This document shows, piece by piece, positions 1,139 through 38,751 of a DNA stretch of 55,688 nt (position 1 is the stretch's first letter; each line of letters starts with the position of its first letter). The DNA is taken from the sequence record DRR723986_5549; one strand, given 5' to 3'. Below the pieces are notes generated by a model. It searched no databases, had not been told where the DNA came from, and worked only from the letters and a program-made list of their open reading frames with translations. The translations under genes and the position numbers were made by a program.

Positions 1139-1180
1139 ATAACCCGCCAGAAATGCTGGCATCATTAACAAGGACGCCTC

Positions 1181-2347
1181 ATGTTTGAATTTCCACACCT
1201 TCAGTTCAACCACGGTGAAGACATTGACATGCTGCGCGACATGGTTTCGCGGTTTGCCAAAGATGAAATAGCCCCGCGCGCTGGCGAAATTGATGAAACC
1301 AACATGTTCCCCGCTGACTTATGGCAAAAAATGGGTGAACTTGGTCTACTCGGCATGACCGCGCCGGAAGAGTTTGGCGGCTCTAACATGGGTTACCTGG
1401 CCCATGTTATTGCGCTGGAAGAAATAAGCCGGGCGTCGGCCTCTGTCGGTTTAAGCTACGGCGCGCACTCTAACCTGTGCATCAACCAAATCGTGAAAAA
1501 CGCAAGCCCCGAACAGCGTGCCAAGTATTTACCAAAGCTGATATCAGGTGAGCATGTGGGTGCACTGGCTATGTCTGAACCCGGCGCTGGCTCTGACGTG
1601 GTTTCCATGAAGTTAAAAGCCGAGAAGACCAACCGGGGTTATATACTTAACGGCAACAAAATGTGGATAACCAATGGCCCCGATGCCAATGTTTTGCTGG
1701 TTTATGCAAAAACAGACATGGATGCAGGACCGCGCGGCATTACCGCCTTTTTAATTGAAAAAGAAATGGATGGTTTTTCAACCGCACAGAAACTAGACAA
1801 ACTCGGCATGCGCGGTTCCAACACATGTGAACTGGTCTTTGAGGACTGTTTTGTGCCATTTGAAAACCGGGTCGGCGAAGAAGGCGACGGTGTGCGGGTT
1901 CTCATGTCTGGTCTAGACTATGAGCGGGTCGTTTTGTCCGGCGGGCCACTTGGCATTATGCGGGCGTGCCTTGATACAGTTGTACCATATGTTCATGAAC
2001 GGCAGCAGTTTGGTCAGCCCATTGGCACGTTCCAGCTAATGCAGGGAAAAATTGCCGACATGTACGCAACATGGGGTTCTGCGCGGGCTTACGTTTATGC
2101 GGTGGCCGCCGCTTGTGATCGCGGCGAAACAACCCGCAAAGACGCGGCAGCCTGTATTTTATATGCAGCCGAAAAAGCCACGTGGATGGCAGGAGAGACC
2201 ATTCAGGCATTGGGCGGCAATGGATATATCAACGAATATTCTGCCGGGCGCCTGTGGCGCGACGCAAAACTATATGAAATTGGTGCCGGTACATCGGAAA
2301 TTCGCCGCATGTTAATTGGGCGAGAGCTTTTTAATGAGACTCGGTAA
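1181..2347 (+). CDS. ivd: Isovaleryl-CoA dehydrogenase
   Basis: [52 protein letters not shown] are IVD-typical; AAGGA RBS upstream. Confidence 0.95.
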
Positions 2348-2367
2348 CCTGACCCCCAAATGAAACG

Positions 2368-2396
2368 AAAAAAGCGGGTTTTATCCCGCTTTTTTT
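2368..2396 (+). terminator. Intrinsic terminator after ivd (may be bidirectional)
   Basis: AAAAAAGCGGG-ttttat-CCCGCTTTTTTT hairpin about 20 nt after the stop codon. Confidence 0.9.
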
Positions 2397-2469
2397 ATGG
2401 GCAAATGACATACCCATCACATTTTGCGAAAGCATCTTTCAAAAAAAAGCTGATATGGAACTTTTAGAG

Positions 2470-2494
2470 CTTACAAAAAGGTTATTTTTGTAAG
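2470..2494. promoter_or_regulatory. Inverted repeat upstream of the Leu/Phe/Val dehydrogenase, candidate operator
   Basis: CTTACAAAAA-ggtta-TTTTTGTAAG, perfect 10-bp arms about 95 nt before the ATG. Confidence 0.4.
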
Positions 2495-2589
2495 TTCATT
2501 TCAAATCTTTAGTGCCATACTGCCGCGATCATTAGGGCGCATACAGCGTTGAACAGGCCTCTATCAGGCTGACTAAAAGGAAACGGCCC

Positions 2590-3711
2590 ATGCCGGTATT
2601 TGACTCGCGTAGCTTCAAAGATCATGAACAAGTTGTATTTTGTGCAGACAAAGAAACCGGCCTAAAGGCAATTATCGCCGTTCATTCTACCGCGCTTGGC
2701 CCTTCCGGCGGCGGTATCCGTTTTTGGGACTATGCAGCCGCACACAGGCTTGTTGCACCTGGCGACATTGCAGACATTCGCGGCGAAGAAGATGCTGTAT
2801 ATGATGTTCTTCGCCTCTCACGTGGCATGTCCTACAAAAACGCCATGGCAGGCCTTCGGCTTGGCGGCGGAAAATCTGTCATCATCGGTAACCCGCGCCA
2901 ATTAGGTACGCCCGAACTTATGATGGCCTTTGGTCGTTACATTGAACGCTTAGGCGGCTCTTACTATGCGGCCGAAGATGTAGGCACCAGCCCAGACATG
3001 CTGGCTTCTGTCGCCAAAAGCACCAAGTATGTTTCTGGCCTCGACAGCGGCGAATTCGCTACTGGCGATCCCTCACCGCACACAGCGCTGGGTGTCTTTG
3101 TCAGCATTCAAGCGGCAGTAAAACACCGGCTAGGCAAAACAGATCTCAAGGGCGTTCGGGTTGCGGTTCAAGGAGTTGGTCATGTGGGCCTTTATTTAGT
3201 TGAACACCTTGTTAATGCTGGCGCCCTAGTCACTATCACCGATATCGTTGATAGCAACATTGAGGCTGCAAAGTCCAAAGGTGATGTGACAGTTGTTGAA
3301 CCATCAGAAATTCACGCTGTGGACTGCGATGTATTTGCGCCCTGCGCGTTAGGTGGCGGGCTTAACCCAAAAACCATTCCTGATATCAAAGCAACCGTTA
3401 TTGCCGGTGCTGCAAACAACCAGCTAGAGCATGAAGGCGTGCAAGACGAAGACCTTCGTCAGCGCGGTATACTTTATGCACCTGATTATGTCGTGAATGC
3501 GGGTGGCATCATTTCAGTTGAATCAGAGGTGCACCGCGAAAAGGTAAGCGATGCTGAACGCGAAGCCAAAGTGCTGCGCATCGGCGAAACATTGGCCACG
3601 GTATTTGCCGCCAGCGACAAACAAGGCAGGCCCACAGGTGAAGTGGCCAATAAAATGGCAGAAGATATCATTCGCAAGGCAAGTGAACGCAAAAGCATGG
3701 CTGCTGAGTAA
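2590..3711 (+). CDS. ldh: Glu/Leu/Phe/Val dehydrogenase (leucine dehydrogenase-like)
   Basis: HEQVVFC..TGLKAIIAVH, LSRGMSYKNA..LGGGK, AEDVGT, GDPSP.TA.GV, QGVGHVG, GAANNQL, PDYVVNAGG. Confidence 0.9.
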   Translation: MPVFDSRSFKDHEQVVFCADKETGLKAIIAVHSTALGPSGGGIRFWDYAAAHRLVAPGDIADIRGEEDAVYDVLRLSRGMSYKNAMAGLRLGGGKSVIIGNPRQLGTPELMMAFGRYIERLGGSYYAAEDVGTSPDMLASVAKSTKYVSGLDSGEFATGDPSPHTALGVFVSIQAAVKHRLGKTDLKGVRVAVQGVGHVGLYLVEHLVNAGALVTITDIVDSNIEAAKSKGDVTVVEPSEIHAVDCDVFAPCALGGGLNPKTIPDIKATVIAGAANNQLEHEGVQDEDLRQRGILYAPDYVVNAGGIISVESEVHREKVSDAEREAKVLRIGETLATVFAASDKQGRPTGEVANKMAEDIIRKASERKSMAAE

Positions 3712-3749
3712 AATAAGACCGGGCGACAATATTCAATATACGCGCAGCC

Positions 3750-5450
3750 CTACTGGTTAGGGTCGGTGGCCAATGCCCGGTAATTGTCTGATCGCAAAAC
3801 CTTTACAACTGTGCGAATATCGTCCTCATCTGCGTCAAGCGCGCGGGCCACTTCTGCCCCTAAACTAATGCTAGCCTCTAAGGTTTCAGGCACAGTGTGA
3901 GTTGCACCCAGCACACGGAGTTTCCCGGCGACGCTATTGTCATGTACACGTACATATGTAGGCAAATGTGGGCATTCGGCCTTGGCACTACGTATCATGC
4001 GCTCTGCCGCCTTTTGATCATCAATCGTAATCACAAGCAACGCAGCGTCTTCTGCATCAACCGCCCGCAATATCTGTGTGCGCGCGGCATCCCCGTATAC
4101 GGCATCAAAACCACAGGCCCGCGCTTTTTTAATGTGCTCTGGGTCAAGGTCAATAACGGTAAACGGTATTTCCAAGTCCGATAAAATGCGGGCAACCGCT
4201 TCACCCACGCGGCCATATCCTGCGATAATAACTTGTTTTTTGTCCGCATCCGATTTTTCGACAGGTTCTTGCTTAGCCACAGCTTCGCGCGTCATCCGCC
4301 GAGACAACCACATGCCGGCGGCATAGAGCAGCGGCGTTATCGCCATCGACAATGCAATCACCGCTGTCAGCAATTCAGCAAGCGGCCCATTAAGAACGCC
4401 TTCACTGCGGGCATAGGCAAACAACACGAAGCCAAACTCACCAGACTGCGCAAGCAAAGCACCCACTTTAATAGCCTCTGGCAAAGTATGCTTCATGAGA
4501 CGGACTAAGCCCGTAATAACCATGGCTTTCAGAACAACCAAAACCACAAGAGCCAGCAAAATCGTATACGTTTGCGCTGACAAGGTACCCAAATTAATGC
4601 TCATACCCACCGACATGAAAAACAAGCCAAGCAACAGGCCCCTAAATGGCTGGATATCAACTTCTACCTGGTGGCGAAATTCGGATTCTGCCATTAATAG
4701 ACCTGCAATAAAGGCGCCCATGGCCATTGAAAGGCCAATGCTGTCCATCAACCAGCCAAAACCCAGAACCAGCAATAAGGCGAACCCGGTAAAAACTTCA
4801 GGAGTGTCATTCGATGCCACCAGCCTGAACATAGGGTTGATCGCTAGCCTCCCAACCAACACCGTGCCGGCAAAAATGACAATGGTTTCAAGGAACGCAT
4901 AACCAAAAGATGCCCCAACAGTGGCTTGCTCCGCCGCTAAAAGCGGCACAAGCGCCAAAAGCGGCACAACAGCAATGTCTTGTAACAATAATATTGATAA
5001 GCCCAGCCGCCCCCATTGTACCGAAAGCTGTTTTTTAGTTGCCAGCAATTGAATACCAAAAGCCGTGCTAGACAGGGCCATGCCCAAACCCACAATCGAA
5101 GCTTGGCCTAACTCAAGCCCGAAAACCGACTTGGAAAGCAATGCGAGCACAAGACCAGTAACCAATACTTGGGCGCTACCAAGACCAAAAACCTGTCGTC
5201 GCATTACCCACAGGCGGGCGGGCTTCAGTTCAATACCAATTAAAAATAAAAGAAAAACAACGCCAAACTCGCCCAAATGCGCGATTTGTGCAGGGTTGGT
5301 GATTAAGCCCAAACCCCAAGGCCCAATCAAGACGCCGCCGACTAGATACCCAAGTATAGCGCCCATGCCGAGGCGCCTAAATATGGTGGCAGCGACAACC
5401 GCCACAGCCATTAAGGCTAGAATTTCAAGAAGCATCGTGTCGTGCGACAT
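3750..5450 (-). CDS. CPA2 monovalent cation:proton antiporter, KefB/KefC-like, with C-terminal TrkA-N/KTN domain
   Basis: Many TM segments, EFGVVFLLF.IG.E, LSSTA, LLQD, DIQPFRGLLLGLFF, GEFGFV and GYGRVG KTN motif; start placed at MSHDTM (5450), ORF track extends to 5489. Confidence 0.9.
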   Translation of the reverse strand: MSHDTMLLEILALMAVAVVAATIFRRLGMGAILGYLVGGVLIGPWGLGLITNPAQIAHLGEFGVVFLLFLIGIELKPARLWVMRRQVFGLGSAQVLVTGLVLALLSKSVFGLELGQASIVGLGMALSSTAFGIQLLATKKQLSVQWGRLGLSILLLQDIAVVPLLALVPLLAAEQATVGASFGYAFLETIVIFAGTVLVGRLAINPMFRLVASNDTPEVFTGFALLLVLGFGWLMDSIGLSMAMGAFIAGLLMAESEFRHQVEVDIQPFRGLLLGLFFMSVGMSINLGTLSAQTYTILLALVVLVVLKAMVITGLVRLMKHTLPEAIKVGALLAQSGEFGFVLFAYARSEGVLNGPLAELLTAVIALSMAITPLLYAAGMWLSRRMTREAVAKQEPVEKSDADKKQVIIAGYGRVGEAVARILSDLEIPFTVIDLDPEHIKKARACGFDAVYGDAARTQILRAVDAEDAALLVITIDDQKAAERMIRSAKAECPHLPTYVRVHDNSVAGKLRVLGATHTVPETLEASISLGAEVARALDADEDDIRTVVKVLRSDNYRALATDPNQ

Positions 5451-5595
5451 GGGTAAAACAACCTTTTCGGCTGAAAATAACAGCAACAATTTACTTAAAG
5501 CGCAATGATAAGCTCAGCAATACACGGCGTAAAGCCATGCAGCGCTATACTACATAGGCATAACATAATTGCCGAAACGACCCTAAAAGCACTTT

Positions 5596-6987
5596 TTATA
5601 TATGTAGCGCGTGCCCCAGAGCTTTAAGCGCGGCTTCCTGGAAACCCTCACTTTGAGTTGGGTGCGCGTGGATAGTGCCCGCAACATCCTGCAAGCAAGC
5701 GCCCATTTCCAGTGCCAAAGAGAATGCCGCCGACAGTTCAGCAACGCCTTTGCCTACAGCCTGAATGCCCAGAACCAGATCATTGTCGTCGCGCGCAACA
5801 ATACGCACAAAGCCTGATTCCGCTTCCATCGTCATGGCGCGGCCATTGGCGGCAAAGGGAAAAATACCAATTTTAGTTTTATAACCCGCTGCTTTGGCCT
5901 CGTCTGGCGACAGGCCAGCCGTTACAATTTCAGGATCAGTAAAGCAAACCGCCGGGATAGACACCTTATCAAAACGACGATTTTGACCTGCAATAATTTC
6001 AGCAACCATTTCACCCTGCGCCATGGCACGGTGTGCCAGCATAGGCTCACCAGTGACATCACCAATGGCGAAAACATCGGTCATTGACGTGCGGCATTGA
6101 TCATCAATGGCAACCACACGGCCATTCATGGTCAGGTCGAGCCCCTCTAAGCCCCAGCCTTCAGTTTTTGCTTTGCGTCCAACAGTCACGAGTATCTTGT
6201 TTGCAGAAAGCTTCTTGTCGCCGTCTGCCGTTTCTACAATCAGAGACGTACCTGTTTTATTGGCAGATTTGGCTTTGGTGCTAAGGAGAACTTCGATACC
6301 CAGCTTTTTCAAGCTTTCCGCTACAGGTTTTGAAAGTGCAGCATCATATTGCGGCAATATACGCTCGGCCGCCTCAACAACTGTCACTTTACTACCCATT
6401 TTGGCATAGGCTGTGCCTAGCTCAAGGCCGATGTAACCACCGCCAATAACAACCAGCTTTTCCGGCACACTGTCAAGCGCCAACGCCTCGGTTGAGGAAA
6501 TGATATTGCCGCCATAAGGCAAGGATGGAATTTCAATAGGCTCAGAGCCCGTCGCTAAAATGACATGCTTGGCCTTGATCACAACGGTGCCGTCTGCGGT
6601 TTTAACTTCACAGGTTTTTCCGTTGGTCATGTGTCCCCAACCGATGACGGAGCGCACTTTATTTTTCTTCAATAATCCGCTGATACCGCCCGTTAGGCGA
6701 CCAACGATGGCATCTTTCCACGCAATGGTTTTAGAAAGATCCAGCTTTGGTGCATTTGCAGAAATACCCAAAACATTGTCGCCAGCAAAATGCATGGCTT
6801 TTTCAAATTCATCTGCAGCGTGAATAAGCGCTTTAGACGGGATACAGCCAACATTGAGGCATGTACCGCCGTGCGCTTCGCCTTCGACGATGATTGTATC
6901 CAAGCCCAGTTGCCCTGCACGAATTGCCGCAACATACCCACCAGGGCCAGCGCCCAACACCAAAACATTACACGATAGCGTTTCCAT
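5596..6987 (-). CDS. lpdA: Dihydrolipoamide dehydrogenase (E3 of branched-chain 2-oxoacid dehydrogenase)
   Basis: [20 protein letters not shown] redox disulfide, HAHPTQSE; last gene of the bkd operon. Confidence 0.97.
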
Positions 6988-8301
6988 TTAACCCTCCATA
7001 AAGAGCGTTGCAGGGTTTTCGAGTAAACCCTTGATGCGCTGGATAAATTCAGCGGCGTCATAGCCATCAACAATGCGGTGATCAAACCCGGAAGACAGGT
7101 TCATCATTTTGCGCGGTACAAAGCCACCATCAATATATTCGGGGCGAACACGTATTTTATTCACGCCTACAATAGCCACTTCGGGGCTGTTGATGACAGG
7201 CGTTGAAACAACGCCGCCTAACTTACCAAGGCTTGTCAGAGTTATGGTTGAACCGGTTAATTCTTCGCGGGAAATAGACCCATCGCGTGCGGCATCAGCC
7301 AAACGCTTACTCTCTGCAGCCAAGCCCCAAACATCATGGGTTTCAGCGTGGCGCAAAACCGGCACCATTAGGCCGCCGGGTGTTTGAGCCGCCATGCCAA
7401 TATGTGCAGCGCCGTATTGGTACAAAAGGTCTTCGCCGTCCGCATAGTGAGAACTGAGCTTTGGGTAATCCTTAATTGCAATTACCATCGCTTTCATGAT
7501 GAAGGGCAAGATGGTTAGCTTTGGCTGGTCATCGCGTTTGGTGCTATTAAGGTGCGCGCGCAATTTCTCAAGTTCAGTAACGTCAACTTCTTCCACATAA
7601 GTAATGTGAGGAATGCGTTGCTTGGCATCTTGCATACGCTGAGCGATTTTGCGGCGCAGACCGATAACCTTGATTTCTTCAATCGACGTGTTGGGAGCAT
7701 TACCTGCCCGCCCAACCGGGGCCGTCGCGCCGGATATATAGGCGTCTAGATCTTCGTGACTTATGCGGCCTGCAGGGCCTGTGCCGTGAACATAGGCAAG
7801 TTTAATACCAGCATCCATGGCGCGCTTACGAACAGCGGGGGAAGCAAGCGGCGCTTCGCCTTCCGCGCGGGGCGCACCAGATATGACCTTTGCGCCTGCT
7901 ATAACGGTGGATGGCTTTGCAACCACTGCCGCAACCGCCGGCTCTGGTTTTGGCGCGGGTTTAGCCTCTGCTTTCGGTTCTGCTTTTGGCTCGGCTTTTT
8001 CTTCAAGCTTATGTGCTGAAGCCGCCGCCTCTGCTGAAATTGATGCCTCGTTGCCCTCGCCGTCTACTTCCAGTGTGATGATAACAGTGCCAACCGCCGT
8101 CATTGCACCGATCTCACCGCTGATTGACATCACTGTACCGTCTTCAGGTGATGGAATTTCAACTGTAGCTTTGTCTGTCATAACAGCGGCGAGCACATCA
8201 TCTTCTTTGACAACATCCCCTACCTTGACATTCCACTCAACAATCTCGGCTTCGGTGATACCTTCGCCGACATCAGGCATTTGAATCTTATGCTGTCCCA
8301 T
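6988..8301 (-). CDS. bkdB: Branched-chain 2-oxoacid dehydrogenase E2 (dihydrolipoamide acyltransferase)
   Basis: Lipoyl domain MTDKATVEIPSP, Ala/Pro linker, ASPAVR..GTGPAGRI E3-binding domain, DHRIVDG catalytic motif. Confidence 0.95.
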   Translation of the reverse strand: MGQHKIQMPDVGEGITEAEIVEWNVKVGDVVKEDDVLAAVMTDKATVEIPSPEDGTVMSISGEIGAMTAVGTVIITLEVDGEGNEASISAEAAASAHKLEEKAEPKAEPKAEAKPAPKPEPAVAAVVAKPSTVIAGAKVISGAPRAEGEAPLASPAVRKRAMDAGIKLAYVHGTGPAGRISHEDLDAYISGATAPVGRAGNAPNTSIEEIKVIGLRRKIAQRMQDAKQRIPHITYVEEVDVTELEKLRAHLNSTKRDDQPKLTILPFIMKAMVIAIKDYPKLSSHYADGEDLLYQYGAAHIGMAAQTPGGLMVPVLRHAETHDVWGLAAESKRLADAARDGSISREELTGSTITLTSLGKLGGVVSTPVINSPEVAIVGVNKIRVRPEYIDGGFVPRKMMNLSSGFDHRIVDGYDAAEFIQRIKGLLENPATLFMEG

Positions 8302-9317
8302 TAGATTGCCTCCATCATGGCTTTAAGCTCGCGTCCAACACGTGCAGGCCCAGGGAAATAATCCCATTCCTGCGCATGTGGATAGGGTGTGTCATATCCG
8401 GCGACACGCACAACTGGTGCCTCTAGGTGATAGAAGCATCGCTCTTGAACTTGGGCCGATAATTCAGCACCAAAGCCCGAGGTTTGTGTTGCTTCATGCA
8501 GCACCATGCAACGCCCCGTTTTAGTGACAGATTTTACAATCGCGTCAACGTCAAGCGGCAACAAAGAGCGCAGATCAATAATTTCGGCATCAATACCAGT
8601 TTCTTGCGCCGCAGCTTCTGCCACATACACCATAGTGCCATAGGTCAGAATAGTAACGTCTGTGCCTTCGCGGAAAACAGACGCCTTACCAATTTCGACT
8701 GTGTAATGACCCTCAGGCACATCACCAAGCGGATGTTTGGACCAGTTACTTGCCGGACGGTCATGGTGGCCATCAAAGGGGCCATTGTATAAACGTTTAG
8801 GCTCAAAAACGATCACTGGGTCTGGGTCTTCGATTGCTGCAATCAACAACCCTTTTGCATCATATGGGTTAGACGGAATAACAGACTTAATGCCGGCAAT
8901 ATGCGTGAACAGCGATTCCGGGCTTTGGCTGTGCGTTTGGCCGCCAAAAATACCACCGCCAACCGGCGTGCGAATGGCAATCGGCGCTGTAAACTGTTCA
9001 CCGGAGCGATAACGCATACGCGCCGCTTCTGACACAATTTGATCATAGGCTGGATAAATATAATCAGCGAATTGAATTTCTACACATGGGCGTAGGCCGT
9101 ATGCCGCCATACCAACCGCAGCACCAACAATACCGCTTTCGTTAATGGGGCTATCGAAAACGCGGCTGGTACCATATTTCTTCTGCAAGCCATGCGTGCA
9201 GCGGAAAACACCGCCAAAGTAACCAGCATCTTCACCGAAAACGACAACGTTATCATCTTCGGCCATTTTCACATCCATTGCATCGCGAATGGCTTCAATC
9301 ATCGACATTTGCGGCAT
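8301..9317 (-). CDS. bkdA2: Branched-chain 2-oxoacid dehydrogenase E1 beta
   Basis: GED.GYFGGVFR, EIQFADY, GGQTHSQSPE, FEPKRLY; TAATG overlap with E2. Confidence 0.95.
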   Translation of the reverse strand: MPQMSMIEAIRDAMDVKMAEDDNVVVFGEDAGYFGGVFRCTHGLQKKYGTSRVFDSPINESGIVGAAVGMAAYGLRPCVEIQFADYIYPAYDQIVSEAARMRYRSGEQFTAPIAIRTPVGGGIFGGQTHSQSPESLFTHIAGIKSVIPSNPYDAKGLLIAAIEDPDPVIVFEPKRLYNGPFDGHHDRPASNWSKHPLGDVPEGHYTVEIGKASVFREGTDVTILTYGTMVYVAEAAAQETGIDAEIIDLRSLLPLDVDAIVKSVTKTGRCMVLHEATQTSGFGAELSAQVQERCFYHLEAPVVRVAGYDTPYPHAQEWDYFPGPARVGRELKAMMEAI

Positions 9318-9319
9318 GG

Positions 9320-10573
<1,254 letters not shown>

Positions 10574-10578
10574 CTAAA

Positions 10579-10605
10579 AAATACGTCAGTAATAATGACG
10601 TATTT
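10579..10605. promoter_or_regulatory. Perfect inverted repeat just upstream of bkdA1 (operator or terminator/attenuator)
   Basis: AAATACGTCA-gtaataa-TGACGTATTT; followed by a T run on the minus strand. Confidence 0.5.
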
Positions 10606-10749: not shown

Positions 10750-11628
10750 TCACACTGGCCGCGCGTGATGGACTCCTGCTCGGGCATATTCCTGTGTGCC
10801 ATGGTGGAAAACTTTGTCAGAAGGCAGCACGGCGTCCACCCGATAAATTGACAGGTCATTTTCTAACCGATCATATATTGGTCCAAAGTCCTCATAGGTT
10901 TTTTCCAAAAGGTCTTCAAAGCTTTCAATAACCATGTAAGTCTTCTGATAATCATCAATGTGATACTCAGTTTTCATGGTGCGTTCCACATCAAAGCCAA
11001 TACGGTTCGGACTGGTATCATGAATTGAGAAATGGCTCTCAGACTTTGAGCTTAATACGCCTGCTCCGTATATACGCAAACCATCTTTTGTATTAATCAA
11101 ACCAAACTCAACGGTATACCAATATAACCGCGCCAGATTAGCCAGCACACCACGGCCAGTAGCACGCCTGCCGCCTTTGCCATATGCTTCCATATACTCA
11201 GCGAACACAGGGTTAGCCAGTAAAGGTACATGGCCGTATACGTCGTGAAACACATCTGGTTCTTGCAAATAATCAAGCTGTCCTGCGCTTCGAATGAAAT
11301 TACCCGCAGGAAAGCGTTTGTTCGCTAAATGGTCAAAAAACACATCATCCGGCACCAAGTCTGGCACCGCTACAACTTGCCAACCAGTTTTCTTTGCCAA
11401 AATGTCAGATAAGCGGTCAAAATGCGGAATGCCGCCGCCCGCAAGCCCAAGAACATCCAGCCCATCTAGAAACTCCGTGCAGGCCAAAGTCTGCAAAAAC
11501 TGGCCCTGCCGCGCAAACAATTGGTCCCAACGCGCATGCTCCTCGGGCGTAAACAATTCCCATTCCTGGTCAATGGTATAGTCGTCGTTCACCTCGACCG
11601 TGCGACCCAACCGCGTAACAATTTCCAT
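10750..11628 (-). CDS. phhA: Phenylalanine 4-monooxygenase
   Basis: DYLQEPDVFHDVYGHVPLL, ARLYWYTVEFGL and YGAGVLSS aromatic amino acid hydroxylase motifs. Confidence 0.97.
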   Translation of the reverse strand: MEIVTRLGRTVEVNDDYTIDQEWELFTPEEHARWDQLFARQGQFLQTLACTEFLDGLDVLGLAGGGIPHFDRLSDILAKKTGWQVVAVPDLVPDDVFFDHLANKRFPAGNFIRSAGQLDYLQEPDVFHDVYGHVPLLANPVFAEYMEAYGKGGRRATGRGVLANLARLYWYTVEFGLINTKDGLRIYGAGVLSSKSESHFSIHDTSPNRIGFDVERTMKTEYHIDDYQKTYMVIESFEDLLEKTYEDFGPIYDRLENDLSIYRVDAVLPSDKVFHHGTQEYARAGVHHARPV

Positions 11629-11657: not shown

Positions 11658-12299
11658 TTATTGAACCGCGTCAGGTTGATTTTCTGGCAAAGCATCTGCA
11701 AAGGCTGCTAATGCATTACATGCGCTGTCAATTCGCATGATAGTTGGAAAGGCGTCAAGCGGTGTTTTAAATCGTCGGGCATTCCAAACTTGCGGCACCA
11801 AGTACACATCCGCCAGTGTCGGCGTATCACCAAAACAGAACTGCCCGGCTGTCATACCAACCAATGCTTCGAAAGCCGAGAAACCATCTATAATCCAGCG
11901 GTGATACCACTGCTGCACAGCGCCCTCATCTGCGCCAAAGTCACTTTTTAATGCTTTAAGCACAGACAGATTATTGAGCGGATGAATATCACAAGCGATA
12001 AGGCTTGCGAGCTGCCTAACAATGGCCTTATCAGCCGCATTCTTAGGCAATAATGGCACGTCAGGGTAGCAATCTTCCAGATATTCCAAAATAGCGGGGG
12101 ATTGGCTGATGGCAACATCACCGTCCTTGAAAAAAGGCACCCTGCCTTGTGGATTAACCGCCCTATATTCCGCACTGTGCTGCTCGCTAACGCCCGGCAT
12201 TAAATTGACCGGGATAGTATCATATTCAAGCCCCTTTAAGGCCAGTGCTATACGTACCCGAAAGGCAGCAGATGATCTGAAATATCCATATAATTCCAC
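11658..12299 (-). CDS. maiA: Maleylacetoacetate isomerase (GST zeta class)
   Basis: LYGYFRSSAAFRVRIAL, NPQGRVP, SQS.AI.EYL, ACDIHPLNNL; GTG start. Confidence 0.95.
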   Translation of the reverse strand: MELYGYFRSSAAFRVRIALALKGLEYDTIPVNLMPGVSEQHSAEYRAVNPQGRVPFFKDGDVAISQSPAILEYLEDCYPDVPLLPKNAADKAIVRQLASLIACDIHPLNNLSVLKALKSDFGADEGAVQQWYHRWIIDGFSAFEALVGMTAGQFCFGDTPTLADVYLVPQVWNARRFKTPLDAFPTIMRIDSACNALAAFADALPENQPDAVQ

Positions 12300-12302
12300 G
12301 GC

Positions 12303-13310
12303 TTATGCCTTAATAACCGTTTGATCGATAGCCCCGAATATGCTGGTACCGTCTTCGTCAAACATTTCAATGCGAATATGATCTCCAAAGTCCATAAAAG
12401 GGGTTGATGGTTTGCCATCTTCAATGGTTTCAATCATGCGAATTTCGGCGATACAGCTATAACCAACCCCGCCTTCTGACACAGGCTTACCCGGGCCATC
12501 ATTCAATTTATTCGAAACCGTTCCAGAGCCAATAATAGCGCCTGCGCCTAGAGGCCGTGATTTCGCTGCATGGGCAATAAGCTGTGCAAAATCAAAGGTC
12601 ATATCAATGCCTGCGTTTGGTTCGCCGAACTTTGAGCCATTCAAGTGAGAAACAAGTGGACGGTGCAATTTATTGCTATGCCAGTGCTCGCCTAATTCGT
12701 CGGGTGTTACGCATACGGGGCTGAAGGCACTAGAAGGTTTAGACTGAAAAAAGCCAAATCCTTTGCCTAGTTCTCCCGGTATCAAGCCGCGCAAAGACAC
12801 ATCATTCACCAACATTACCAGTTTGATATGAGCACCCGCATCATCAACAGTTACAGCCATTGGCACATCGTTGGTGATCACCGCGACCTCGCCCTCATAA
12901 TCCAGGCCCCACCCTTCAGTTTGCGGCATAACAATATCACCGCGTGGGTCCAGGAATGTGTCAGATCCGCCTTGATACATTAAAGGGTCGGTCCAAAAAC
13001 TGGCTGGCATTTCCGCGCCGCGCGCCCGGCGTACAAGCTCAACATGATTAACATAAGCGGACCCATCAGCCCACTGGAATGCTCGCGGTAACGGCGAGGC
13101 ACAGTCTGCTTCAACAAATGGGCTACCTTCAACCGCGCCAGAATTAAGCGACTGGTACAACCCACGCAGGCGTGGCATCGCCGCATCCCAGTCATCAAGT
13201 GCGGCTTGCAGTGTCGGTGCTATGCCCGCCGCTTCGGTCATTCTGGTCAAATCGCGCGATACAACAATGAGCTTGCCATCGCGGCCGTTCTTTAAGGATG
13301 CAAGTTTCAT
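12303..13310 (-). CDS. Fumarylacetoacetate hydrolase family protein (probable fumarylacetoacetase)
   Basis: WADGSAY..H, DPLMYQGGSD, DYEGE, NDVSLR, GFFQSKP, GSGTVSN; lies within the hppD-maiA operon. Confidence 0.9.
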   Translation of the reverse strand: MKLASLKNGRDGKLIVVSRDLTRMTEAAGIAPTLQAALDDWDAAMPRLRGLYQSLNSGAVEGSPFVEADCASPLPRAFQWADGSAYVNHVELVRRARGAEMPASFWTDPLMYQGGSDTFLDPRGDIVMPQTEGWGLDYEGEVAVITNDVPMAVTVDDAGAHIKLVMLVNDVSLRGLIPGELGKGFGFFQSKPSSAFSPVCVTPDELGEHWHSNKLHRPLVSHLNGSKFGEPNAGIDMTFDFAQLIAHAAKSRPLGAGAIIGSGTVSNKLNDGPGKPVSEGGVGYSCIAEIRMIETIEDGKPSTPFMDFGDHIRIEMFDEDGTSIFGAIDQTVIKA

Positions 13311-13367: not shown

Positions 13368-13913
13368 TTAAACCTTGGGCGGGAACTCACCCTCACCGTG
13401 CAACCAGGCAGCGTGCTTCGGCGCCTTCTTGGTTTGCGACCACTCTTCCAGCATAGCTGGAGCCACGCGCTTTAGTTCTTCAAGCATGCCCGGCTTGGCT
13501 GTATTGGTTGCCAACTCGAGCCTGTGCCCGTTAGGGTCAAAGAAGTAAATCGATTTAAAAATAGTATGTTCTGTCGGGCCCAAAACTTCGATTCCCGCTG
13601 CCTCTAATCGCTCTTTTGCCGCTAATAGCGTGTCCATATCCGCCACTTCAAAGGCAATATGCTGAACCCATTCCGGCGTATTTTGGTCGCGGTCCATTTC
13701 TTTTTGGTTTGGCAGTTCAAAGAAGGCCAACACATTGCCGTTTCCAGCATCAAGAAACAAATGCATGTAAGGGTCCGGCTCGCCAGTTGAAGGCACCTCG
13801 TCTTCTGCAATAGCCAGCAGAAAATCCATATCAAGGTTTTTTTGATAAAACTCTACCGTTTCTTTCGCATCTCGGCATCGATAGGCCACATGATGAATGC
13901 GCTCTAATTTCAT
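13368..13913 (-). CDS. VOC (glyoxalase/extradiol dioxygenase) family metalloprotein; candidate homogentisate ring-cleaving enzyme
   Basis: IHHVAY, LAFFE, QHIAF, SIYFFDPNGHRLE VOC motifs; family call is solid, function is inferred from position. Confidence 0.85.
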   Translation of the reverse strand: MKLERIHHVAYRCRDAKETVEFYQKNLDMDFLLAIAEDEVPSTGEPDPYMHLFLDAGNGNVLAFFELPNQKEMDRDQNTPEWVQHIAFEVADMDTLLAAKERLEAAGIEVLGPTEHTIFKSIYFFDPNGHRLELATNTAKPGMLEELKRVAPAMLEEWSQTKKAPKHAAWLHGEGEFPPKV

Positions 13914-13972: not shown

Positions 13973-15061
13973 TTATGCTGCAGTCTCGTCATTTCCTATC
14001 ACACCGCGCGCAAGTTGGTCACGCTCAATGGATTCGAACAGGGCCTTGAAGTTACCCTCGCCAAAACCCTCGTCTTTCTTGCGTTGGATAAATTCGAAGA
14101 AAATGGGGCCAATCTGCGTTTCCGAAAAAATCTGCAACAGTAAGCGTGGGTCACCGTCCTCAGTTGAGCCATCAAGCAGAATACCGCGCTTTTGCAGCTC
14201 TTCAACCGGTTCACCGTGGCCAGGCAAGCGATCATCCAACATGGCGTAATATGTTTCAGGTGGCGCTGTCATAAACGGTACTCCTCTCGCCTTCAACCGG
14301 TCCCAACATTCGAGTAAATTGTCGCAAGAAAATGCAATATGCTGAATGCCTTCGCCGTTATACTGCATCAAATATTCTTCGATTTGGCCCTTGCCGCCAC
14401 CTGATTCCTCATTCAGCGGAATGCGGATTAATCCGTCAGGGGCTGTCATGGCACGAGATAGAAGTCCGGTATATTCGCCTTTAATGTCGAAATATCTGAT
14501 TTCACGGAAATTAAACAAACTCTCGTAAAAGTTTGCCCAATAATCCATCCGCCCGCGATACACATTATGAGTTAAGTGATCAATAACGTTGAAGCCGCAC
14601 CCAACAGGGTTTCGGTCAACGCCCTCCAACCATTCAAAATCGATATCATAAATCGATTGCCCCTCTTCAAAACGATCGATGAGATAGAGCATGGCGCCGC
14701 CAATGCCCTTGATGGCAGGCAGTTTCAGCTCCATCGGCCCTGTCGGCACATCAATTGGCTGGGCGCCGAGTTCAAGGGCACGCGCGTATGCTTTTGCGGC
14801 GTCTTTAACACGAAATGCCATGCCAGATGCACACGGCCCGTGTTCTTCAGCAAAATATGCTGCGGGTGATTTTGCCTCATAATTGGTAATAAAGTTAATG
14901 TCGCCTTGCCGCCACAGCTCTACATCCTTCGACCGGTGGCGGGCCACCAGCGTGAAGCCCATAGCCTCAAAAACTGGCTCAAGCAGGCCCTTTTCACCAG
15001 CCGCAAACTCGACAAACTCGAAACCACACAAACCCATTGGGTTTTCAAATAAATCTGCCAT
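13973..15061 (-). CDS. hppD: 4-hydroxyphenylpyruvate dioxygenase
   Basis: [57 protein letters not shown]. Confidence 0.98.
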
Positions 15062-15163: not shown

Positions 15164-15196
15164 TGCAATATTTCAATGACCATGTTTGGGGAAAAA

Positions 15197-15640
15197 ATGA
15201 CAGACCACACACTTTCGCTATCTGAATTTCTGCCTTACCGGCTTTCGGTTCTGTCAAACCGCATCAGCCGGTCTATTGCCGACGGCTATGAAGAGCAATT
15301 TCAACTATCCCTGCCCGAATGGCGGGTGATGGCTATTCTAGGGGAAGAGCCCAATCTTTCTGCCGGTCAGGTAGCGGACAGAACAGCAATGGACAAAGTG
15401 GCTGTTTCCAGAGCGGTGAGCAAATTGCTGGAGTCTGGCAGACTAGAGCGCCATTTTGCTGATGATGATAAACGCAGGTCTGTGTTGGCGCTGTCACAGT
15501 CTGGTCAAGAGACTTACACCGAGATCACACCTATTGCCCTAGCTTATGAAGAAAAGCTTCTAGGGCATTTTTCAGAAGACGAAAAACAACAGTTGGATGC
15601 ATTGCTCAAAAAACTAAACTTAAGCCAAGTAAAGACCTAG
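15197..15640 (+). CDS. MarR family transcriptional regulator, divergent from hppD
   Basis: FLPYRLSVL, EWRV, MDKVAVSRAV HTH, DKRR wing; start at MTDH (15197) after GGGGA, ORF track 15176. Confidence 0.92.
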   Translation: MTDHTLSLSEFLPYRLSVLSNRISRSIADGYEEQFQLSLPEWRVMAILGEEPNLSAGQVADRTAMDKVAVSRAVSKLLESGRLERHFADDDKRRSVLALSQSGQETYTEITPIALAYEEKLLGHFSEDEKQQLDALLKKLNLSQVKT

Positions 15641-15664: not shown

Positions 15665-16639
15665 TCAAACTTGATTCACCACTTTCGTAAACGCCGTGCG
15701 CCAATCAGTTGTTTTCAATCCAAGCAGCAGAGACAACAAGATACGAGCCTTACGGCCAGTTAACCGGCCTGATGGGACTAAGCCTTTACTAAGCAAGTCA
15801 ATTTCGGCACCACGATAACCATACGTTCGTTCAAACACCGAGCCTGCCCGCACCCGAGATGCTAAAATCACCGGGATTTCTTGCGCGATCACTGCCAATT
15901 TTTCAGCAATATTTTCTGACACATGTCCTGCCCCAAACCCTTCAACCACAAGCCCGGCATAGCCTGCGCTTAAAACCGCATCAAAAAGGGCGCCATCATC
16001 ATCAAGCACTGTGCTTAATAGCGCAACAGGGGCAAATTCCTTGGGGATATCAAATACAGGCGATGGTTTCACCGGGTGCAAAAACACATTGCCTTCCGCT
16101 ATTTGCCCGATGGGGCCACGAACCGGGCTTTGGAAAGCGGCAACATTCGATGTGTGCGACTTGGTGACGTAAAATGGATGGTGAATTTCATCATTCATTA
16201 CCACTGAAACGACTGGCCCGCCTTTCTCCACAGCTGTCAAAGCGGCTGCCATCAAATTTGCACGCCCATCAGCACCGGGCTGTGTCGGCGAGCGCATAGC
16301 ACCCGTAAACACCATGCGTTGCGGCCCTTTGTGCATGAGGCTTGCTAAAAAAGCAGTTTCTTCAAGCGAGTCTGTACCCTGTGTGACCATAATACCGTCA
16401 CCATCAACGGCGGCAGCACGCGCGCACAAGGATGCGATTTCCGGGAAAAACAGATTGGCGCTAGCTTTCAGGGACACATTATGGGCTTGAATGTCCGCCA
16501 CATCAGAAAGCTCTGGCGCGGCAGCCAAGAGATCTTGAGCAGTGAAGGCCGGACGCACACCCGACCCTTCATTTTGAATGGGCGCCATGGCAATGGTGCC
16601 CCCGAGGCTAAAAATATGTAAAACTGGCTTTTTTGTCAT
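15665..16639 (-). CDS. L-asparaginase family protein (cytoplasmic)
   Basis: GGTIAM, TQGTDSLEET, TGAMR, ADG..NL, K.HT motifs; no signal peptide. Confidence 0.9.
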   Translation of the reverse strand: MTKKPVLHIFSLGGTIAMAPIQNEGSGVRPAFTAQDLLAAAPELSDVADIQAHNVSLKASANLFFPEIASLCARAAAVDGDGIMVTQGTDSLEETAFLASLMHKGPQRMVFTGAMRSPTQPGADGRANLMAAALTAVEKGGPVVSVVMNDEIHHPFYVTKSHTSNVAAFQSPVRGPIGQIAEGNVFLHPVKPSPVFDIPKEFAPVALLSTVLDDDGALFDAVLSAGYAGLVVEGFGAGHVSENIAEKLAVIAQEIPVILASRVRAGSVFERTYGYRGAEIDLLSKGLVPSGRLTGRKARILLSLLLGLKTTDWRTAFTKVVNQV

Positions 16640-16660
16640 AACCAGTGTTTAGCCCATATT

Positions 16661-17782
16661 TTATGATGCGCCAATTGCTTCCTTGGCAGGTTTATATGCA
16701 AGCTGCTGATCATTCGCCACGGCTTCATACGTGATGTCGCCCAAACAAACATTAAGCCCTTCTAGCAAATGCTCATCGTCGGCCAATGCTTTCTTCCAGC
16801 CTTTGTTTGCAAGAGCAAGAGCGTAACCCAATGTTGCATTATTCAGCGCCAATGTTGATGTGCGAGCAACGCCGCCAGGCATGTTAGCAACGCAGTAATG
16901 TACAACATCATCAACCAGATAGGTCGGGTCTTGGTGGGTGGTTGCCTTTGAGGTTTCAAAACAACCGCCCTGGTCAATCGCCACATCCACAAGGACAGAC
17001 CCGCGCATCATTTTGCCAATCATTTCACGGCTAACCAGCTTGGGCGCAGCAGCACCCGGAATAAGAACCGCGCCAACAACCAAATCAGCGGCAAGAACAT
17101 GCTCTTCAACCGAGTCTTGCGTTGAGAAAACCGTTTTCACCTGCCCTTTAAAGATATCATCCAATTGCTGCATGCGCCGGATAGACCGGTCAATGATGGT
17201 TACATCAGCGCCCATACCAACCGCCATGCGCGCAGCGTTGGTGCCAACAACACCGCCACCGATAATCGAAACCTTGGCAGGCGCAACACCCGGCACACCG
17301 CCCAGCAACATGCCGCGGCCACCTTGGCTCATTTCAAGGGCATGAGCGCCTGCCTGAATTGACATGCGGCCAGCAACCTCTGACATCGGCGCAAGCAATG
17401 GCAAACCACCAAAGCGGTCAGTAACTGTTTCATAAGCAATAGCAACACAGCCTGACTTAATAAGCCCCTGTGTTTGTGCAGGGTCGGGCGCAAGGTGAAG
17501 GTATGTATACAGAATTTGACCCTCACGCAGCATTTCACATTCAACAGCTTGGGGCTCTTTCACTTTCACGATCATGTCTGCTTTGGCAAATATTTCTGCC
17601 GCCGTTGGCAAAATTGAAGCACCAGCCGCTTGGTACATCTCATTTGGAAAACCAATGGCAAACCCGGCATTATGTTCTACGACAACATCATGCCCGTTCA
17701 CGATTAGCTCCCGCACAGATGCAGGGGTAAGGCCAACGCGGTATTCATGGTTTTTAATTTCTTTTGGTACGCCGATCAGCAT
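16661..17782 (-). CDS. ald: Alanine dehydrogenase
   Basis: [50 protein letters not shown]; start 17782 after GGAGAG, ORF track 17794. Confidence 0.97.
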
Positions 17783-17972
17783 GACACTCTCCATAAAGTG
17801 GGTAATTCAGGAACCCAAAGCAGTTTTACAGGTGAATTATCAGGCCTAAATATGCTCTGATATTTTCGGAATTTACTGCAGTTTATTTGACGTGTCCTTG
17901 CATAGTCATTTAATTTTTGACATAAATTCACAAGATTATTGTGTTATTTATAAAATATAGGTGTTTTCCTGC

Positions 17973-18443
17973 ATGCAGAAGTTTGACACGATAGATGCCA
18001 CCATTCTGGATGAATTGCAGCGTAATGGCCGCTTGAGCAACGTTGAACTTGCCGAACGCGCAGGCCTATCCGATTCTGCATGCCTGCGGCGCGTGAAAGC
18101 CTTAGATGAAAAAGGCATTATCACCCATTATGCTGCACACTTGGATGCACCTGCGGTTGGGCTACCGGGAACCGTGTTCGTAAGAGTTTCGCTTACAAGC
18201 CAGCGAGAAGAACAACTACTCACATTTGAAGACGCGGTTACTCATGTGCCCGAGGTTATGGAATGCTATCTCATGAGCGGCGACGTGGATTATATCATCA
18301 GGGTTGTGGTCAAAGACGCGCCTGATTATGAGCGCGTCCACCACTTACTAACCAACCTGCCCGGCGTTGACCGTGTTCACTCCAGCTTTGCCCTCAGAAC
18401 AATCCTTCGTCGTACACGGCTGCCTTTATTCCCAAGAAGCTAA
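17973..18443 (+). CDS. Lrp/AsnC family regulator divergent from ald (AldR-like)
   Basis: D.ID..IL.ELQ.NGRLSNVELA..GLS.SACLRRV HTH; PEVMECYLMSGD.DY; ORF track start 17961. Confidence 0.92.
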   Translation: MQKFDTIDATILDELQRNGRLSNVELAERAGLSDSACLRRVKALDEKGIITHYAAHLDAPAVGLPGTVFVRVSLTSQREEQLLTFEDAVTHVPEVMECYLMSGDVDYIIRVVVKDAPDYERVHHLLTNLPGVDRVHSSFALRTILRRTRLPLFPRS

Positions 18444-18457
18444 TAGGCACTGATGCG

Positions 18458-19456
18458 CTAAAGCCAGCTTGGTACGGGTAAGTCTTTGCTGCGCAGAAAC
18501 TCAGGGTTAAACAGCTTTGATTGATAACGCATGCCACTGTCACAAAGCAGCGTGACAATCGTATGCCCCGGCCCCATTTTTTTTGCCAGTTTAATGGCAC
18601 CCGCTACATTCACCCCTGATGAAGACCCAACACACAAGCCCTCCTTAGCCAAAAGGTCAAAGGCGATTGGCAATGCTTCTGTATCTGTCACCTGAAAAGC
18701 TTCATCTATTGGTGCATCTTCAAGGTTAGCTGTAATTCTGGATTGGCCAATGCCCTCAGAAATCGACCCGCCCTCAGACTTCAATTCTCCCGTGGTGTAA
18801 TAGCTGTAAAGCGCGGCGCCCATGGGGTCCGCAAGGCCAATAACTATATCTTTGTTATGCGCTTTAAGCCCCATACCCGTGCCAACCAAAGAGCCACCGG
18901 AACCAACAGCTGTAATGAAAGCATCAACTTTGCCATCTGTTTGCTGCCATATCTCTTGTGCTGTTGTTTTAATATGGGCTTCTCGATTAGCAACATTGTC
19001 GAATTGATTGGCCCAGATAACACCGTGTTGCTCTGTTGCGGCTAATTCTTCAGCTGTTCGGCGCGCTACATGCTGAAAATTACCCGGCTTTGAATAGGGA
19101 GCAGCAGGCACCAGCTTCAACCCTGCCCCCATTATCCGTAACGTATCAATTTTTTCCTGACTTTGCGTTTCAGGCATAACGATAAGCGTTCGATACCCTT
19201 TTGCATTAGCAACCACCGTAAGGCCAATGCCAGTATTGCCAGCCGTGCCTTCCACGATCAAACCGCCGGGCTCAAGAAGGCCTTTCTTCTCAGCTTCTTC
19301 CACAATGTTAAGCGCAGGCCTGTCTTTCAACGAACCCCCGGGGTTTGCATATTCCGCTTTACCCAAAATTGTGCAGCCAGTGAGTTCAGACGCATATTTC
19401 AGCTTTATCAAGGGCGTATTACCGATTGCTGCGAGCGCTCCGGTGAAATCATTCAT
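18458..19456 (-). CDS. cysK: Cysteine synthase (PLP-dependent O-acetylserine sulfhydrylase family)
   Basis: IGNTPLI, K.E..NPGGS.KDR, EGTAGNTG, NQFDN, GSGG, EGIG, LCDSG.RY. Confidence 0.88.
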   Translation of the reverse strand: MNDFTGALAAIGNTPLIKLKYASELTGCTILGKAEYANPGGSLKDRPALNIVEEAEKKGLLEPGGLIVEGTAGNTGIGLTVVANAKGYRTLIVMPETQSQEKIDTLRIMGAGLKLVPAAPYSKPGNFQHVARRTAEELAATEQHGVIWANQFDNVANREAHIKTTAQEIWQQTDGKVDAFITAVGSGGSLVGTGMGLKAHNKDIVIGLADPMGAALYSYYTTGELKSEGGSISEGIGQSRITANLEDAPIDEAFQVTDTEALPIAFDLLAKEGLCVGSSSGVNVAGAIKLAKKMGPGHTIVTLLCDSGMRYQSKLFNPEFLRSKDLPVPSWL

Positions 19457-23443: not shown

Positions 23444-24517
23444 TTAGTGTGCGCCCGGCGCTCGTTCTAAACTGTCAACCAATTTGCCGTGGTCGTCCAG
23501 TAATTCCGCGAATTCATCGGCAAGTCGTTCACTTTCGTCCACAACAATCTTCCATCGGGCCAGTCTTTCATCGTCTGAAAATTCAGTAAAGTCCTTGCGT
23601 TCCGTAATTTTACCTCCTGGCAACGCCTGCACAAACTCTGCGCTTGGCGCCAGTAGCAATACTTGATCCCACGCTGGGCCTGCTGCTCGGCGTTCAGGAC
23701 GTTTCTTGTCAAACCAGCCCGGTACGATATGGTCGTAAAAATGCGGGTATAGAACGATGCCATCATTATAGTTCCAAGGGATATCAAAATGATAGTCAAT
23801 CACGCCGCCATCTCGGTACACACCCGGCCCTGCGCCTTTGATGTCAATAACTGGCTCGGAGACAAAAGGAATAGACCCGCTGGCCATCAACGCATCAGCC
23901 AAAGTTTCCGCTAAAAGCGGCACATCTATTTTACCAAAACCCTGCCACACATCCGGGCAGGCAATATGGTTGCCGGTATAAAACACGACCCGTTCAAAAA
24001 AATTCGCCAAGTGCGCGCGCGAAACGCGGTTTGCCATGGCTGCCGTTACCATGCCCGCAACTTCAGTTGCTTTACCTTTACTGCCTGCCATGCCCTTGCC
24101 GCGCACAGCAACAATATTCAAATTACGATTGGCGTTTTCAATGAGCCGCCTTGTTTCCGAAGGCGGGTACAAATTATGGATAATATCATAAGAAGCTTTC
24201 GTCAGGTCTGCCGCACTTGAAACACTGTCGGTTCTGAACTGGAAATAGCCTTCAATAAAGGCATCAAAGGTTTTGCCCGGATTGGGGTGGGCATATACCG
24301 TCATGCGCCATGCACCGATGGACGAACCAACCAAATCAACAGGTTGTGGCGCGTTCGGCAGCCAATTATGACACAAAAAGCGATCAAGGCCCTTGAGAAC
24401 CAGCCACTTTGGTCCGCCAGATGCACCGACAATCAGCCGCAACATTTCAGGGCCCAAGCCGCATTCTTCAATGCGTCTTCGGGCAGTTTTTCCAGCGATC
24501 AACTTTAGTGCAGGCAT
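23444..24517 (-). CDS. Patatin-like phospholipase/lipase
   Basis: GASGGPK Gly-rich loop, GSSIG nucleophile, ASGSIP and DGG catalytic Asp. Confidence 0.8.
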   Translation of the reverse strand: MPALKLIAGKTARRRIEECGLGPEMLRLIVGASGGPKWLVLKGLDRFLCHNWLPNAPQPVDLVGSSIGAWRMTVYAHPNPGKTFDAFIEGYFQFRTDSVSSAADLTKASYDIIHNLYPPSETRRLIENANRNLNIVAVRGKGMAGSKGKATEVAGMVTAAMANRVSRAHLANFFERVVFYTGNHIACPDVWQGFGKIDVPLLAETLADALMASGSIPFVSEPVIDIKGAGPGVYRDGGVIDYHFDIPWNYNDGIVLYPHFYDHIVPGWFDKKRPERRAAGPAWDQVLLLAPSAEFVQALPGGKITERKDFTEFSDDERLARWKIVVDESERLADEFAELLDDHGKLVDSLERAPGAH

Positions 24518-38010: not shown

Positions 38011-38751
38011 TCACACGTTTACTGAAATCGGCTTAATAGTATCTGCCAGTGTTTTCGCTGAAACTTTGCGCCGCCAGACCACATAGCGCACCTCGGCACC
38101 ACTCATGATATTGCGTCTAAGGCCAGAACCTGACTTCACAATACCCAAAGTTTCCATTGCCATTTTCTTCTTGCCGCTATCGGGTTCCCAATCATGTAAT
38201 GACAAATAGCTGTCCCGAATTTGCTCGGCCGTTCGCTCGCTAACATCATAATTGCCTGACAGGGTAAAATAGTTTTTCAGTGTGTTCTGCTTACCGGGCA
38301 ACTTTGTAGACACTTGAGAGTATATAAAATATCCGCCGGGGCGGACCACCTGCTGGACATAGTCTGTCCATTCCTGATTTTCCCTAAAAGCCCGAAGGTC
38401 ATCCATACAAAATAACGCATGAAATCGTTTTTTGCCGCGCATAAACGGGTCGTTTAAATGCTTCATGGGGTATAGCCGAACCGCACTGTTCTTTTTAAAC
38501 ATGCTTTCCAGATGGCTGAGACATTCACCGCGACCCTCGTAAGCGTCTACGATATAGCCCCGATCAAGCAAAGACTTAACCAATCTGCCACCGCCAGGGC
38601 CAACAACACCGACATGGGCACGCTCGGGCAAATCATCAAACATCGCCATTGTCTCAATCACATCGAGACTTAAAGGACGCTCACAATAATCAATATTTTG
38701 GCCATTGAACATCAGGTCCAAAGCCATGGAAAAAGCTAAACTCTCACTCAT
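38011..38751 (-). CDS. Hypothetical protein with a degenerate class I SAM-methyltransferase-like fold
   Basis: 246-aa ORF with GAGGG/GGA upstream; VGVVGPGGG (motif I-like), VDAYE, RFHALFC, VRPGGYF. Confidence 0.6.
   Translation of the reverse strand: MSESLAFSMALDLMFNGQNIDYCERPLSLDVIETMAMFDDLPERAHVGVVGPGGGRLVKSLLDRGYIVDAYEGRGECLSHLESMFKKNSAVRLYPMKHLNDPFMRGKKRFHALFCMDDLRAFRENQEWTDYVQQVVRPGGYFIYSQVSTKLPGKQNTLKNYFTLSGNYDVSERTAEQIRDSYLSLHDWEPDSGKKKMAMETLGIVKSGSGLRRNIMSGAEVRYVVWRRKVSAKTLADTIKPISVNV

Follow-up and report, generated by a model that had tools for sequence, protein, structure and literature searches.

A predicted non-cupin homogentisate 1,2-dioxygenase of the VOC fold in a bacterial tyrosine-catabolism cluster

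How does a bacterium open the ring of homogentisate when its tyrosine-catabolism cluster carries no gene for the cupin enzyme HmgA? This question is raised by a locus of sequence record DRR723986_5549, which was analysed as a single window, that is, a whole stretch of DNA of 55,688 nucleotides. The original prediction had described a minus-strand run of hppD, a VOC gene, FAH, maiA and phhA, and had proposed that the short VOC protein occupies the position of the missing hmgA and performs ring cleavage. The gene order was confirmed; successive genes of the run are separated by 59, 57, 3 and 29 nt. The following features were assigned:

15176..15640, plus strand: divergent MarR-family regulator, likely controlling the cluster (PF12802/PF01047).
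13973..15061, minus strand: hppD, 4-hydroxyphenylpyruvate dioxygenase, which makes homogentisate (TIGR01263, 396.4 bits, cut-off 277).
13368..13913, minus strand: candidate homogentisate 1,2-dioxygenase, a single-domain VOC (glyoxalase-fold) protein of 181 aa, of the Acinetobacter 9U42 type (PF00903, 9U42 match, invariant site residues).
12303..13310, minus strand: FAH-family protein of the 335-aa type, likely the fumarylacetoacetase of the pathway (PF18288 and PF01557).
11658..12299, minus strand: maiA, maleylacetoacetate isomerase (TIGR01262, 282 bits, cut-off 171).
10750..11628, minus strand: phhA, phenylalanine 4-monooxygenase (TIGR01267, 324.5 bits, cut-off 264.75).
10579..10605, minus strand: possible intrinsic terminator 3′ of phhA, putative, with a 10-pair stem and a T tail (terminator scan at chance level, 7 such sites against 5.8 expected in shuffles).

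A promoter scan of the window likewise gave results at chance level only. The FAH-family protein is not of the classical type, as it falls far under the TIGR01266 cut-off (18.4 against 375.3). In other genomes, the same PF18288-type FAH of about 335 aa pairs with all three dioxygenase types, and it comes after cupin hmgA at loci L081 and L093-L096. The absence of a cupin HmgA from the window was borne out by tblastn with both long and short HmgA sequences (best E 0.91) and by a scan of the 38 other window ORFs at E <= 1e-6, none of which matched any HmgA family. The surroundings (window 2-10564 and 15665-19456) form a wider amino-acid catabolism region, with genes for a biotin carboxylase, an acyl-CoA dehydrogenase, a Glu/Leu/Phe/Val dehydrogenase and an asparaginase, a 2-oxoacid dehydrogenase E1/E2/E3 run whose E1 alpha carries a 2-oxoisovalerate N-terminal domain, and an alanine dehydrogenase with a divergent Lrp regulator. 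Further away, two minus-strand ORFs (23444-24517, 357 aa, and 38011-38751, 246 aa) gave no match to any Pfam family at E <= 1e-6.

The VOC ORF starts with ATG, with a ribosome-binding-like stretch (GAAGGGAG) just 5′ of it, and its product matches PF00903 in Pfam with an E-value of 1.7e-19. Among the 25 NCBIfam families listed, none has its cut-off reached by this protein; the HmgA profiles (TIGR01015, PF04209/PF20510) give no match at E <= 0.001 in Pfam and in those same families, and comparison with short-type HmgA reveals no sequence similarity (best E 3.0). The residues singled out at the outset (H7, H8, H51, E66, H85, H116 and E133) are all in place, and so is the segment F119-x-S121-x-Y123-F124-x-D126-P127-x-G129-x-x-x-E133. 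Moreover, H7, H8, C13, H51, E66, H85, H116, Y123, H130, E133 and H172 are the same in all 121 close homologues, an invariance that partly reflects closeness, as all of these are at least 77% identical to the VOC protein. Five distant paralogues (43-51% identity) all keep H8, H51, H85, Y123 and E133, while H7, E66 and H116 vary there. Since H8 holds in these paralogues and H7 does not, H8 is favoured as the first metal ligand.

A further indication comes from the PDB. The best sequence match is 9U42 chain A (182 aa), with an E-value of 3.5e-73 over residues 3-174, the next match being at 5.4e-07. The title of this Acinetobacter entry is homogentisate 1,2-dioxygenase and its molecule name is 'Glyoxalase'. 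An AlphaFold2 model of the VOC protein, built on 52 of the 121 homologue sequences (pLDDT 89), superimposes on 9U42 with a Z of 21.1 and an rmsd of 1.6 A over 165 residues at 66% identity, the next structure reaching a Z of 16.1; Foldseek also ranks 9U42 best (E 3.9e-25, 64% identity; next 4.6e-09). In the alignments, the candidate metal and second-sphere residues H7, H8, H51, E66, H85, H116, Y123 and E133 are all identical in 9U42, whose deposited structure contains Zn, not Fe. Model and structure have in common a single-domain VOC fold with a C-terminal helical extension (residues 143-172). Specifically, both beta-alpha-beta-beta-beta modules lie within one chain of the model, and for this reason the oligomer invoked in the original prediction is unnecessary for building one site; single-domain VOC ring-cleaving enzymes, such as L-DOPA dioxygenase, do exist.

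The likeness to the Acinetobacter type thus extends to length (181 against 182 residues), identity (64-66%) and an hpd/maiA/fah cluster, whereas residues ~138-150 diverge and the host lineage is different, the nearest GTDB loci of the window gene being those of a Kordiimonas MAG and other marine bacteria. The regulator also differs, being a divergent MarR protein here and of the IclR type in the Acinetobacter Tol 5 cluster, as described in the accessible part of PMC13572102; and phhA belongs to the window cluster, while A. baumannii AB4353 is without phhAB according to the corresponding part of PMC7646211.

According to the available text of PMC13572102 (2026), the gene annotated as a glyoxalase in the Acinetobacter cluster encodes a homogentisate 1,2-dioxygenase, as demonstrated in A. 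baumannii; the work cited for this is that of Seo, Hwangbo, Kim and Park 2025 (Proteins 93:2150, doi 10.1002/prot.70020). The latter work is known here through the PDB title and through PMC13572102, from which its own title is seen to include 'without glyoxalase I functional convergence'. Genetic evidence is found in the accessible sections of PMC9431530: A. baumannii with a transposon-interrupted hmgA makes pyomelanin, and plasmid-borne hmgA abolished the pigment while the empty vector did not. These sections never use the term VOC for the gene. Its primers, though, translate to MTFAIKKI (forward) and EEELGA followed by a stop (reverse), which fits residues 4-8 (AIKKI) and 177-179 (EEE) of 9U42 as well as its length of 182. 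As both ends fit, the gene complemented in that study is, judging from these peptides, very likely the 9U42-type VOC gene. An earlier paper, PMC7646211 (2020), had in its accessible part judged the A. baumannii gene from sequence alone to be a distant homologue, probably without dioxygenase activity, and PMC13572102, as far as available, also records that Acinetobacter Tol 5 carries the cluster yet does not grow on homogentisate. The available parts of PMC11945678 and PMC8449657 contain nothing on the VOC gene. In other words, the suspicion that similar arrangements had already been noted was correct: the enzyme class is published, with the Acinetobacter protein as its example, and is not new chemistry. 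A family-wide survey of VOC-type homogentisate dioxygenases was not found in the literature searched, and Seo et al. 2025, known by title and citation, may contain one.

The gene neighbourhood in relatives was followed in the best 80 of 595 GTDB loci, whose orthologues are 68-83% identical to the VOC protein. Homologues of hppD, FAH and maiA occur at 47, 52 and 40 of these loci, respectively; hppD is the immediate upstream neighbour at 41 loci and FAH or maiA the immediate downstream neighbour at 49, and any of the three (in their window types) lies within 6 kb at 68. Cupin hmgA is found in none of the 80. With pathway homologues at 68/80 loci and cupin hmgA at 0/80, the cluster arrangement is not due to chance. 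A homologue of the MarR regulator is present at 21 of the 80 loci, and it also adjoins the short cupin hmgA clusters L093 and L097. For the remaining 12 loci, 23 selected neighbours were scanned: seven loci have a classical fumarylacetoacetase (TIGR01266), five a PRK08132 FAD monooxygenase and nine either or both, while three (L022, L042 and L060) have neither gene among the neighbours scanned.

At L067, L068, L070, L072 and L078, the VOC gene adjoins the PRK08132 FAD monooxygenase in place of hppD. This monooxygenase presumably makes homogentisate from a hydroxyphenylacetate, and by analogy its position suggests a supply of homogentisate from that source. At one further locus (L098, on contig C63 of genome G132; 2720-4075, 4179-5435, 6546-8231 and 8452-8994), the VOC gene (70% identity) and a long cupin hmgA lie in one cluster, together with a classical fumarylacetoacetase, a metallo-hydrolase-fold gene, the PRK08132 FAD monooxygenase and maiA. 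The two adjacent ring-cleaving candidates may reflect redundancy or different substrates.

If the VOC protein replaces HmgA, the two genes should tend to exclude each other. A baseline of 251 genomes from each of the classes of G001 (Kordiimonas MAG) and G006 (Alteromonas facilis) was searched with the VOC protein, PF04209 and hppD. VOC orthologues were called at E < 1e-75 (at least 66% identity, the next matches being at most 52%), and the counts exclude both centre genomes as well as G171, whose hppD is below cut-off, G337 (unpublished) and G517 (not scored). Weak matches to PF04209 were accepted as cupin HmgA, including one below the Pfam cut-off (G134), because 5 of 5 inspected loci held a gene of about 380 aa related to HmgA_N/TIGR01015 in an hppD or FAH/maiA cluster. 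In addition, a short-type HmgA query was run on the 58 genomes with the VOC gene or with neither gene; of the 35 in the 'neither' group, 30 proved to have the short type.

Among the resulting 126 hppD-positive genomes, 3 have both genes, 16 VOC only, 102 cupin only and 5 neither, for a pooled Fisher p of 2.4e-13 that ignores kinship and incomplete assemblies (the genomes are related and many are incomplete). That is, the VOC gene is present in 16 of 21 hppD genomes without cupin HmgA against 3 of 105 with it. In the class of G001 (78 hppD-positive genomes: 3 both, 12 VOC only, 63 cupin only, 0 neither), every one of the 12 hppD genomes that lack a cupin has the VOC gene; in the class of G006 (48 genomes), the corresponding figures are 0, 4, 39 and 5. 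The anticipated exclusion is therefore strong but not absolute, and it is clear only when the divergent HmgA of about 380 aa is counted. With strong PF04209 matches only, the class of G001 gives 2 both, 13 VOC only, 17 cupin only and 46 neither (p 0.34), and exclusion is not significant; without the hppD condition, a strong PF04209 match occurs in 2/19 VOC genomes against 22/232 others, with no depletion. This strong-match count was set aside because the weak matches proved to be of the ~380-aa HmgA type.

Divergent cupins of this short type occupy the same slot at L093:5022-6167 (-), L094:5008-6147 (-), L095:4822-5961 (-) and L096:2943-4106 (+). On TIGR01015, the two that were scanned reach only 82 and 101 bits against a cut-off of 510.75, and in 30 hppD genomes the type went unrecognised by PF04209. 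Claims that hmgA is absent are consequently unsafe when made from TIGR01015 or PF04209 alone. The five hppD-positive genomes in which neither cupin HmgA nor a close VOC orthologue was found (L110-L114, in G412, G423, G426, G455 and G481) may be incomplete assemblies, pigment producers or hosts of a further enzyme; in G423, hppD adjoins phhA on a 4.4-Mb contig, and a VOC paralogue of 46% identity lies elsewhere (L107).

Co-occurrence also bears on the alternative that the VOC protein is an accessory factor, acting in metal delivery, in homogentisate or quinone binding or in the cleavage of a substituted homogentisate, while a cupin HmgA elsewhere in the genome does the main cleavage. VOC and cupin genes do occur together in seven genomes (G026, G042, G023, G087, G113, G132 and G264), G132 having them in one shared cluster. 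In the class samples, a cupin is present in 4 of 23 VOC-positive genomes (G087, G113, G132 and G264), G113 being without an hppD match; and among the 50 genomes of the closest orthologues, which underlie the first 50 of the 80 loci, a cupin was found in three (two by PF04209, one more by the short-type query) and none in the other 47. A protein that assists the cupin would be expected to accompany it, however, and only 3 of 105 cupin-bearing hppD genomes have the VOC gene; furthermore, G001 and G003, which share the six-gene order of the window, have no cupin with either query (PF04209 or short type). This alternative is accordingly regarded as very improbable.

Hardly credible is the reading as a glyoxalase I-like or thiol-transfer enzyme that detoxifies reactive by-products of tyrosine catabolism while another protein cleaves the ring. 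Glyoxalase I binds its metal through a His/Glu/His/Glu pattern. Such a set is kept here (H8, E66, H85 and E133), glyoxalase I and fosfomycin-resistance structures rank after 9U42 with Z of 13-16, and the 9U42 molecule name fits; but the protein shares about 20-29% identity with those structures, compared with 66% for 9U42, TIGR00068 (lactoylglutathione lyase) gives 27.7 bits against a cut-off of 120, all Fos families fall far below cut-off, the title of Seo et al. (via the available text of PMC13572102) points the other way, and both the anti-correlation with cupin HmgA and the pigment rescue in the accessible part of PMC9431530 are left unexplained. A low rank was thus given to each of the three alternatives, namely glyoxalase I, a Fos-type transferase and an accessory factor.

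Taken together, the 9U42 title, the demonstration reported in the accessible text of PMC13572102, the A. baumannii genetics in that of PMC9431530 and the co-occurrence pattern support the proposed homogentisate ring cleavage, and the VOC protein of the window is predicted, with high confidence, to be a non-cupin homogentisate 1,2-dioxygenase that opens the ring with O2 to give maleylacetoacetate. PhhA and HppD would feed homogentisate to the VOC protein, in which a divalent metal, probably Fe(II), would be held by H8, H85 and E133, with H51, H116 and Y123 as putative second-sphere residues of extradiol-type chemistry. The residue roles, and the placing of H8 and H51, we take to follow those of extradiol dioxygenases. 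Specifically, Fe(II) on the H8/H85/E133 triad would bind homogentisate and O2, and H51 would serve as acid/base; extradiol-type cleavage would yield maleylacetoacetate, and MaiA and FAH would then produce fumarate and acetoacetate.

The inferred reaction is the same as that of cupin HmgA (TIGR01015; PF20510 and PF04209; long form ~435-450 aa, short form ~380 aa), which at L094-L096 sits in the same hppD-FAH/maiA slot; the VOC protein nevertheless differs from it in fold, has under half its length and matches no HmgA family. A fold is shared, instead, with the type I extradiol (VOC) dioxygenases, namely catechol 2,3-dioxygenase (1MPY, 5ZSZ) and the single-domain L-DOPA dioxygenase (6ON1/6ON3). 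H85, H116, Y123 and E133 align with H220, H252, Y261 and E271 of 5ZSZ, and residues 2-137 match positions 142-265 of TIGR03211. The two-domain extradiols, in contrast to the 181 aa found here, have about 300 aa and four modules, and the VOC protein scores far below their cut-offs (TIGR03211, 37.9 against 320.2 bits; TIGR02295, 28.5 against 321.4 bits); L-DOPA dioxygenase aligns with a Z of 14 over 147 residues at 16% identity. Type I extradiol substrates are catechols, whereas homogentisate is a hydroquinone. By analogy, the VOC protein would resemble a type I extradiol catalytic domain standing alone, with a C-terminal helical extension added.

The original prediction had drawn its analogy with the hydroquinone-cleaving VOC enzymes LinE and PcpA. 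LinE performs Fe(II)-dependent hydroquinone ring cleavage. The analogy is supported for PcpA, which, according to the accessible part of PMC3204407, is a VOC-superfamily protein of 320 residues with His/His/Glu(/Tyr) ligands that carries out Fe(II) hydroquinone ring cleavage and is specific for 2,6-dichlorohydroquinone. Among the matches listed, catechol 2,3-dioxygenases are the closest of the two-domain sequences over the active-site segment, and neither PcpA (320 against 181 residues) nor LinE is named among the matches listed in the PDB sequence, structure, Foldseek and alignment searches.

The distant paralogues (L103:5453-5959, L104:5050-5580, L105, L106 and L107:5047-5658) carry E66D in four of five cases, and homologues of the window-type hppD, FAH and maiA are absent within about 5 kb of all five; judging from their sequences, they are possibly ring-cleavage enzymes for other substrates. 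Tentatively, and with chances put slightly short of even, the VOC type may be a widespread third form of homogentisate dioxygenase, filling the gap in most cupin-less hppD proteobacteria (16/21 sampled) and swapping with long and short cupins in one operon slot, while members of its sister group (43-52% identity, mostly E66D, encoded away from tyrosine genes) may cleave other hydroquinones. The VOC gene is related to at least 8,000 protein clusters, and those that are named bear generic labels such as 'VOC family protein'.

Given the published Acinetobacter enzyme, the remaining value of these findings is modest and lies in the breadth of the family and in the way the VOC type and the long and short forms of cupin HmgA exchange with one another. 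For annotation, the VOC protein reaches the cut-off of no NCBIfam model among those listed, and for organisms of the VOC type, metabolic reconstructions that consider cupins only would mistakenly score tyrosine catabolism as broken or lead one to expect pyomelanin. More generally, ring cleavage by the VOC and cupin enzymes would be a clear example of chemical convergence between two unrelated folds.
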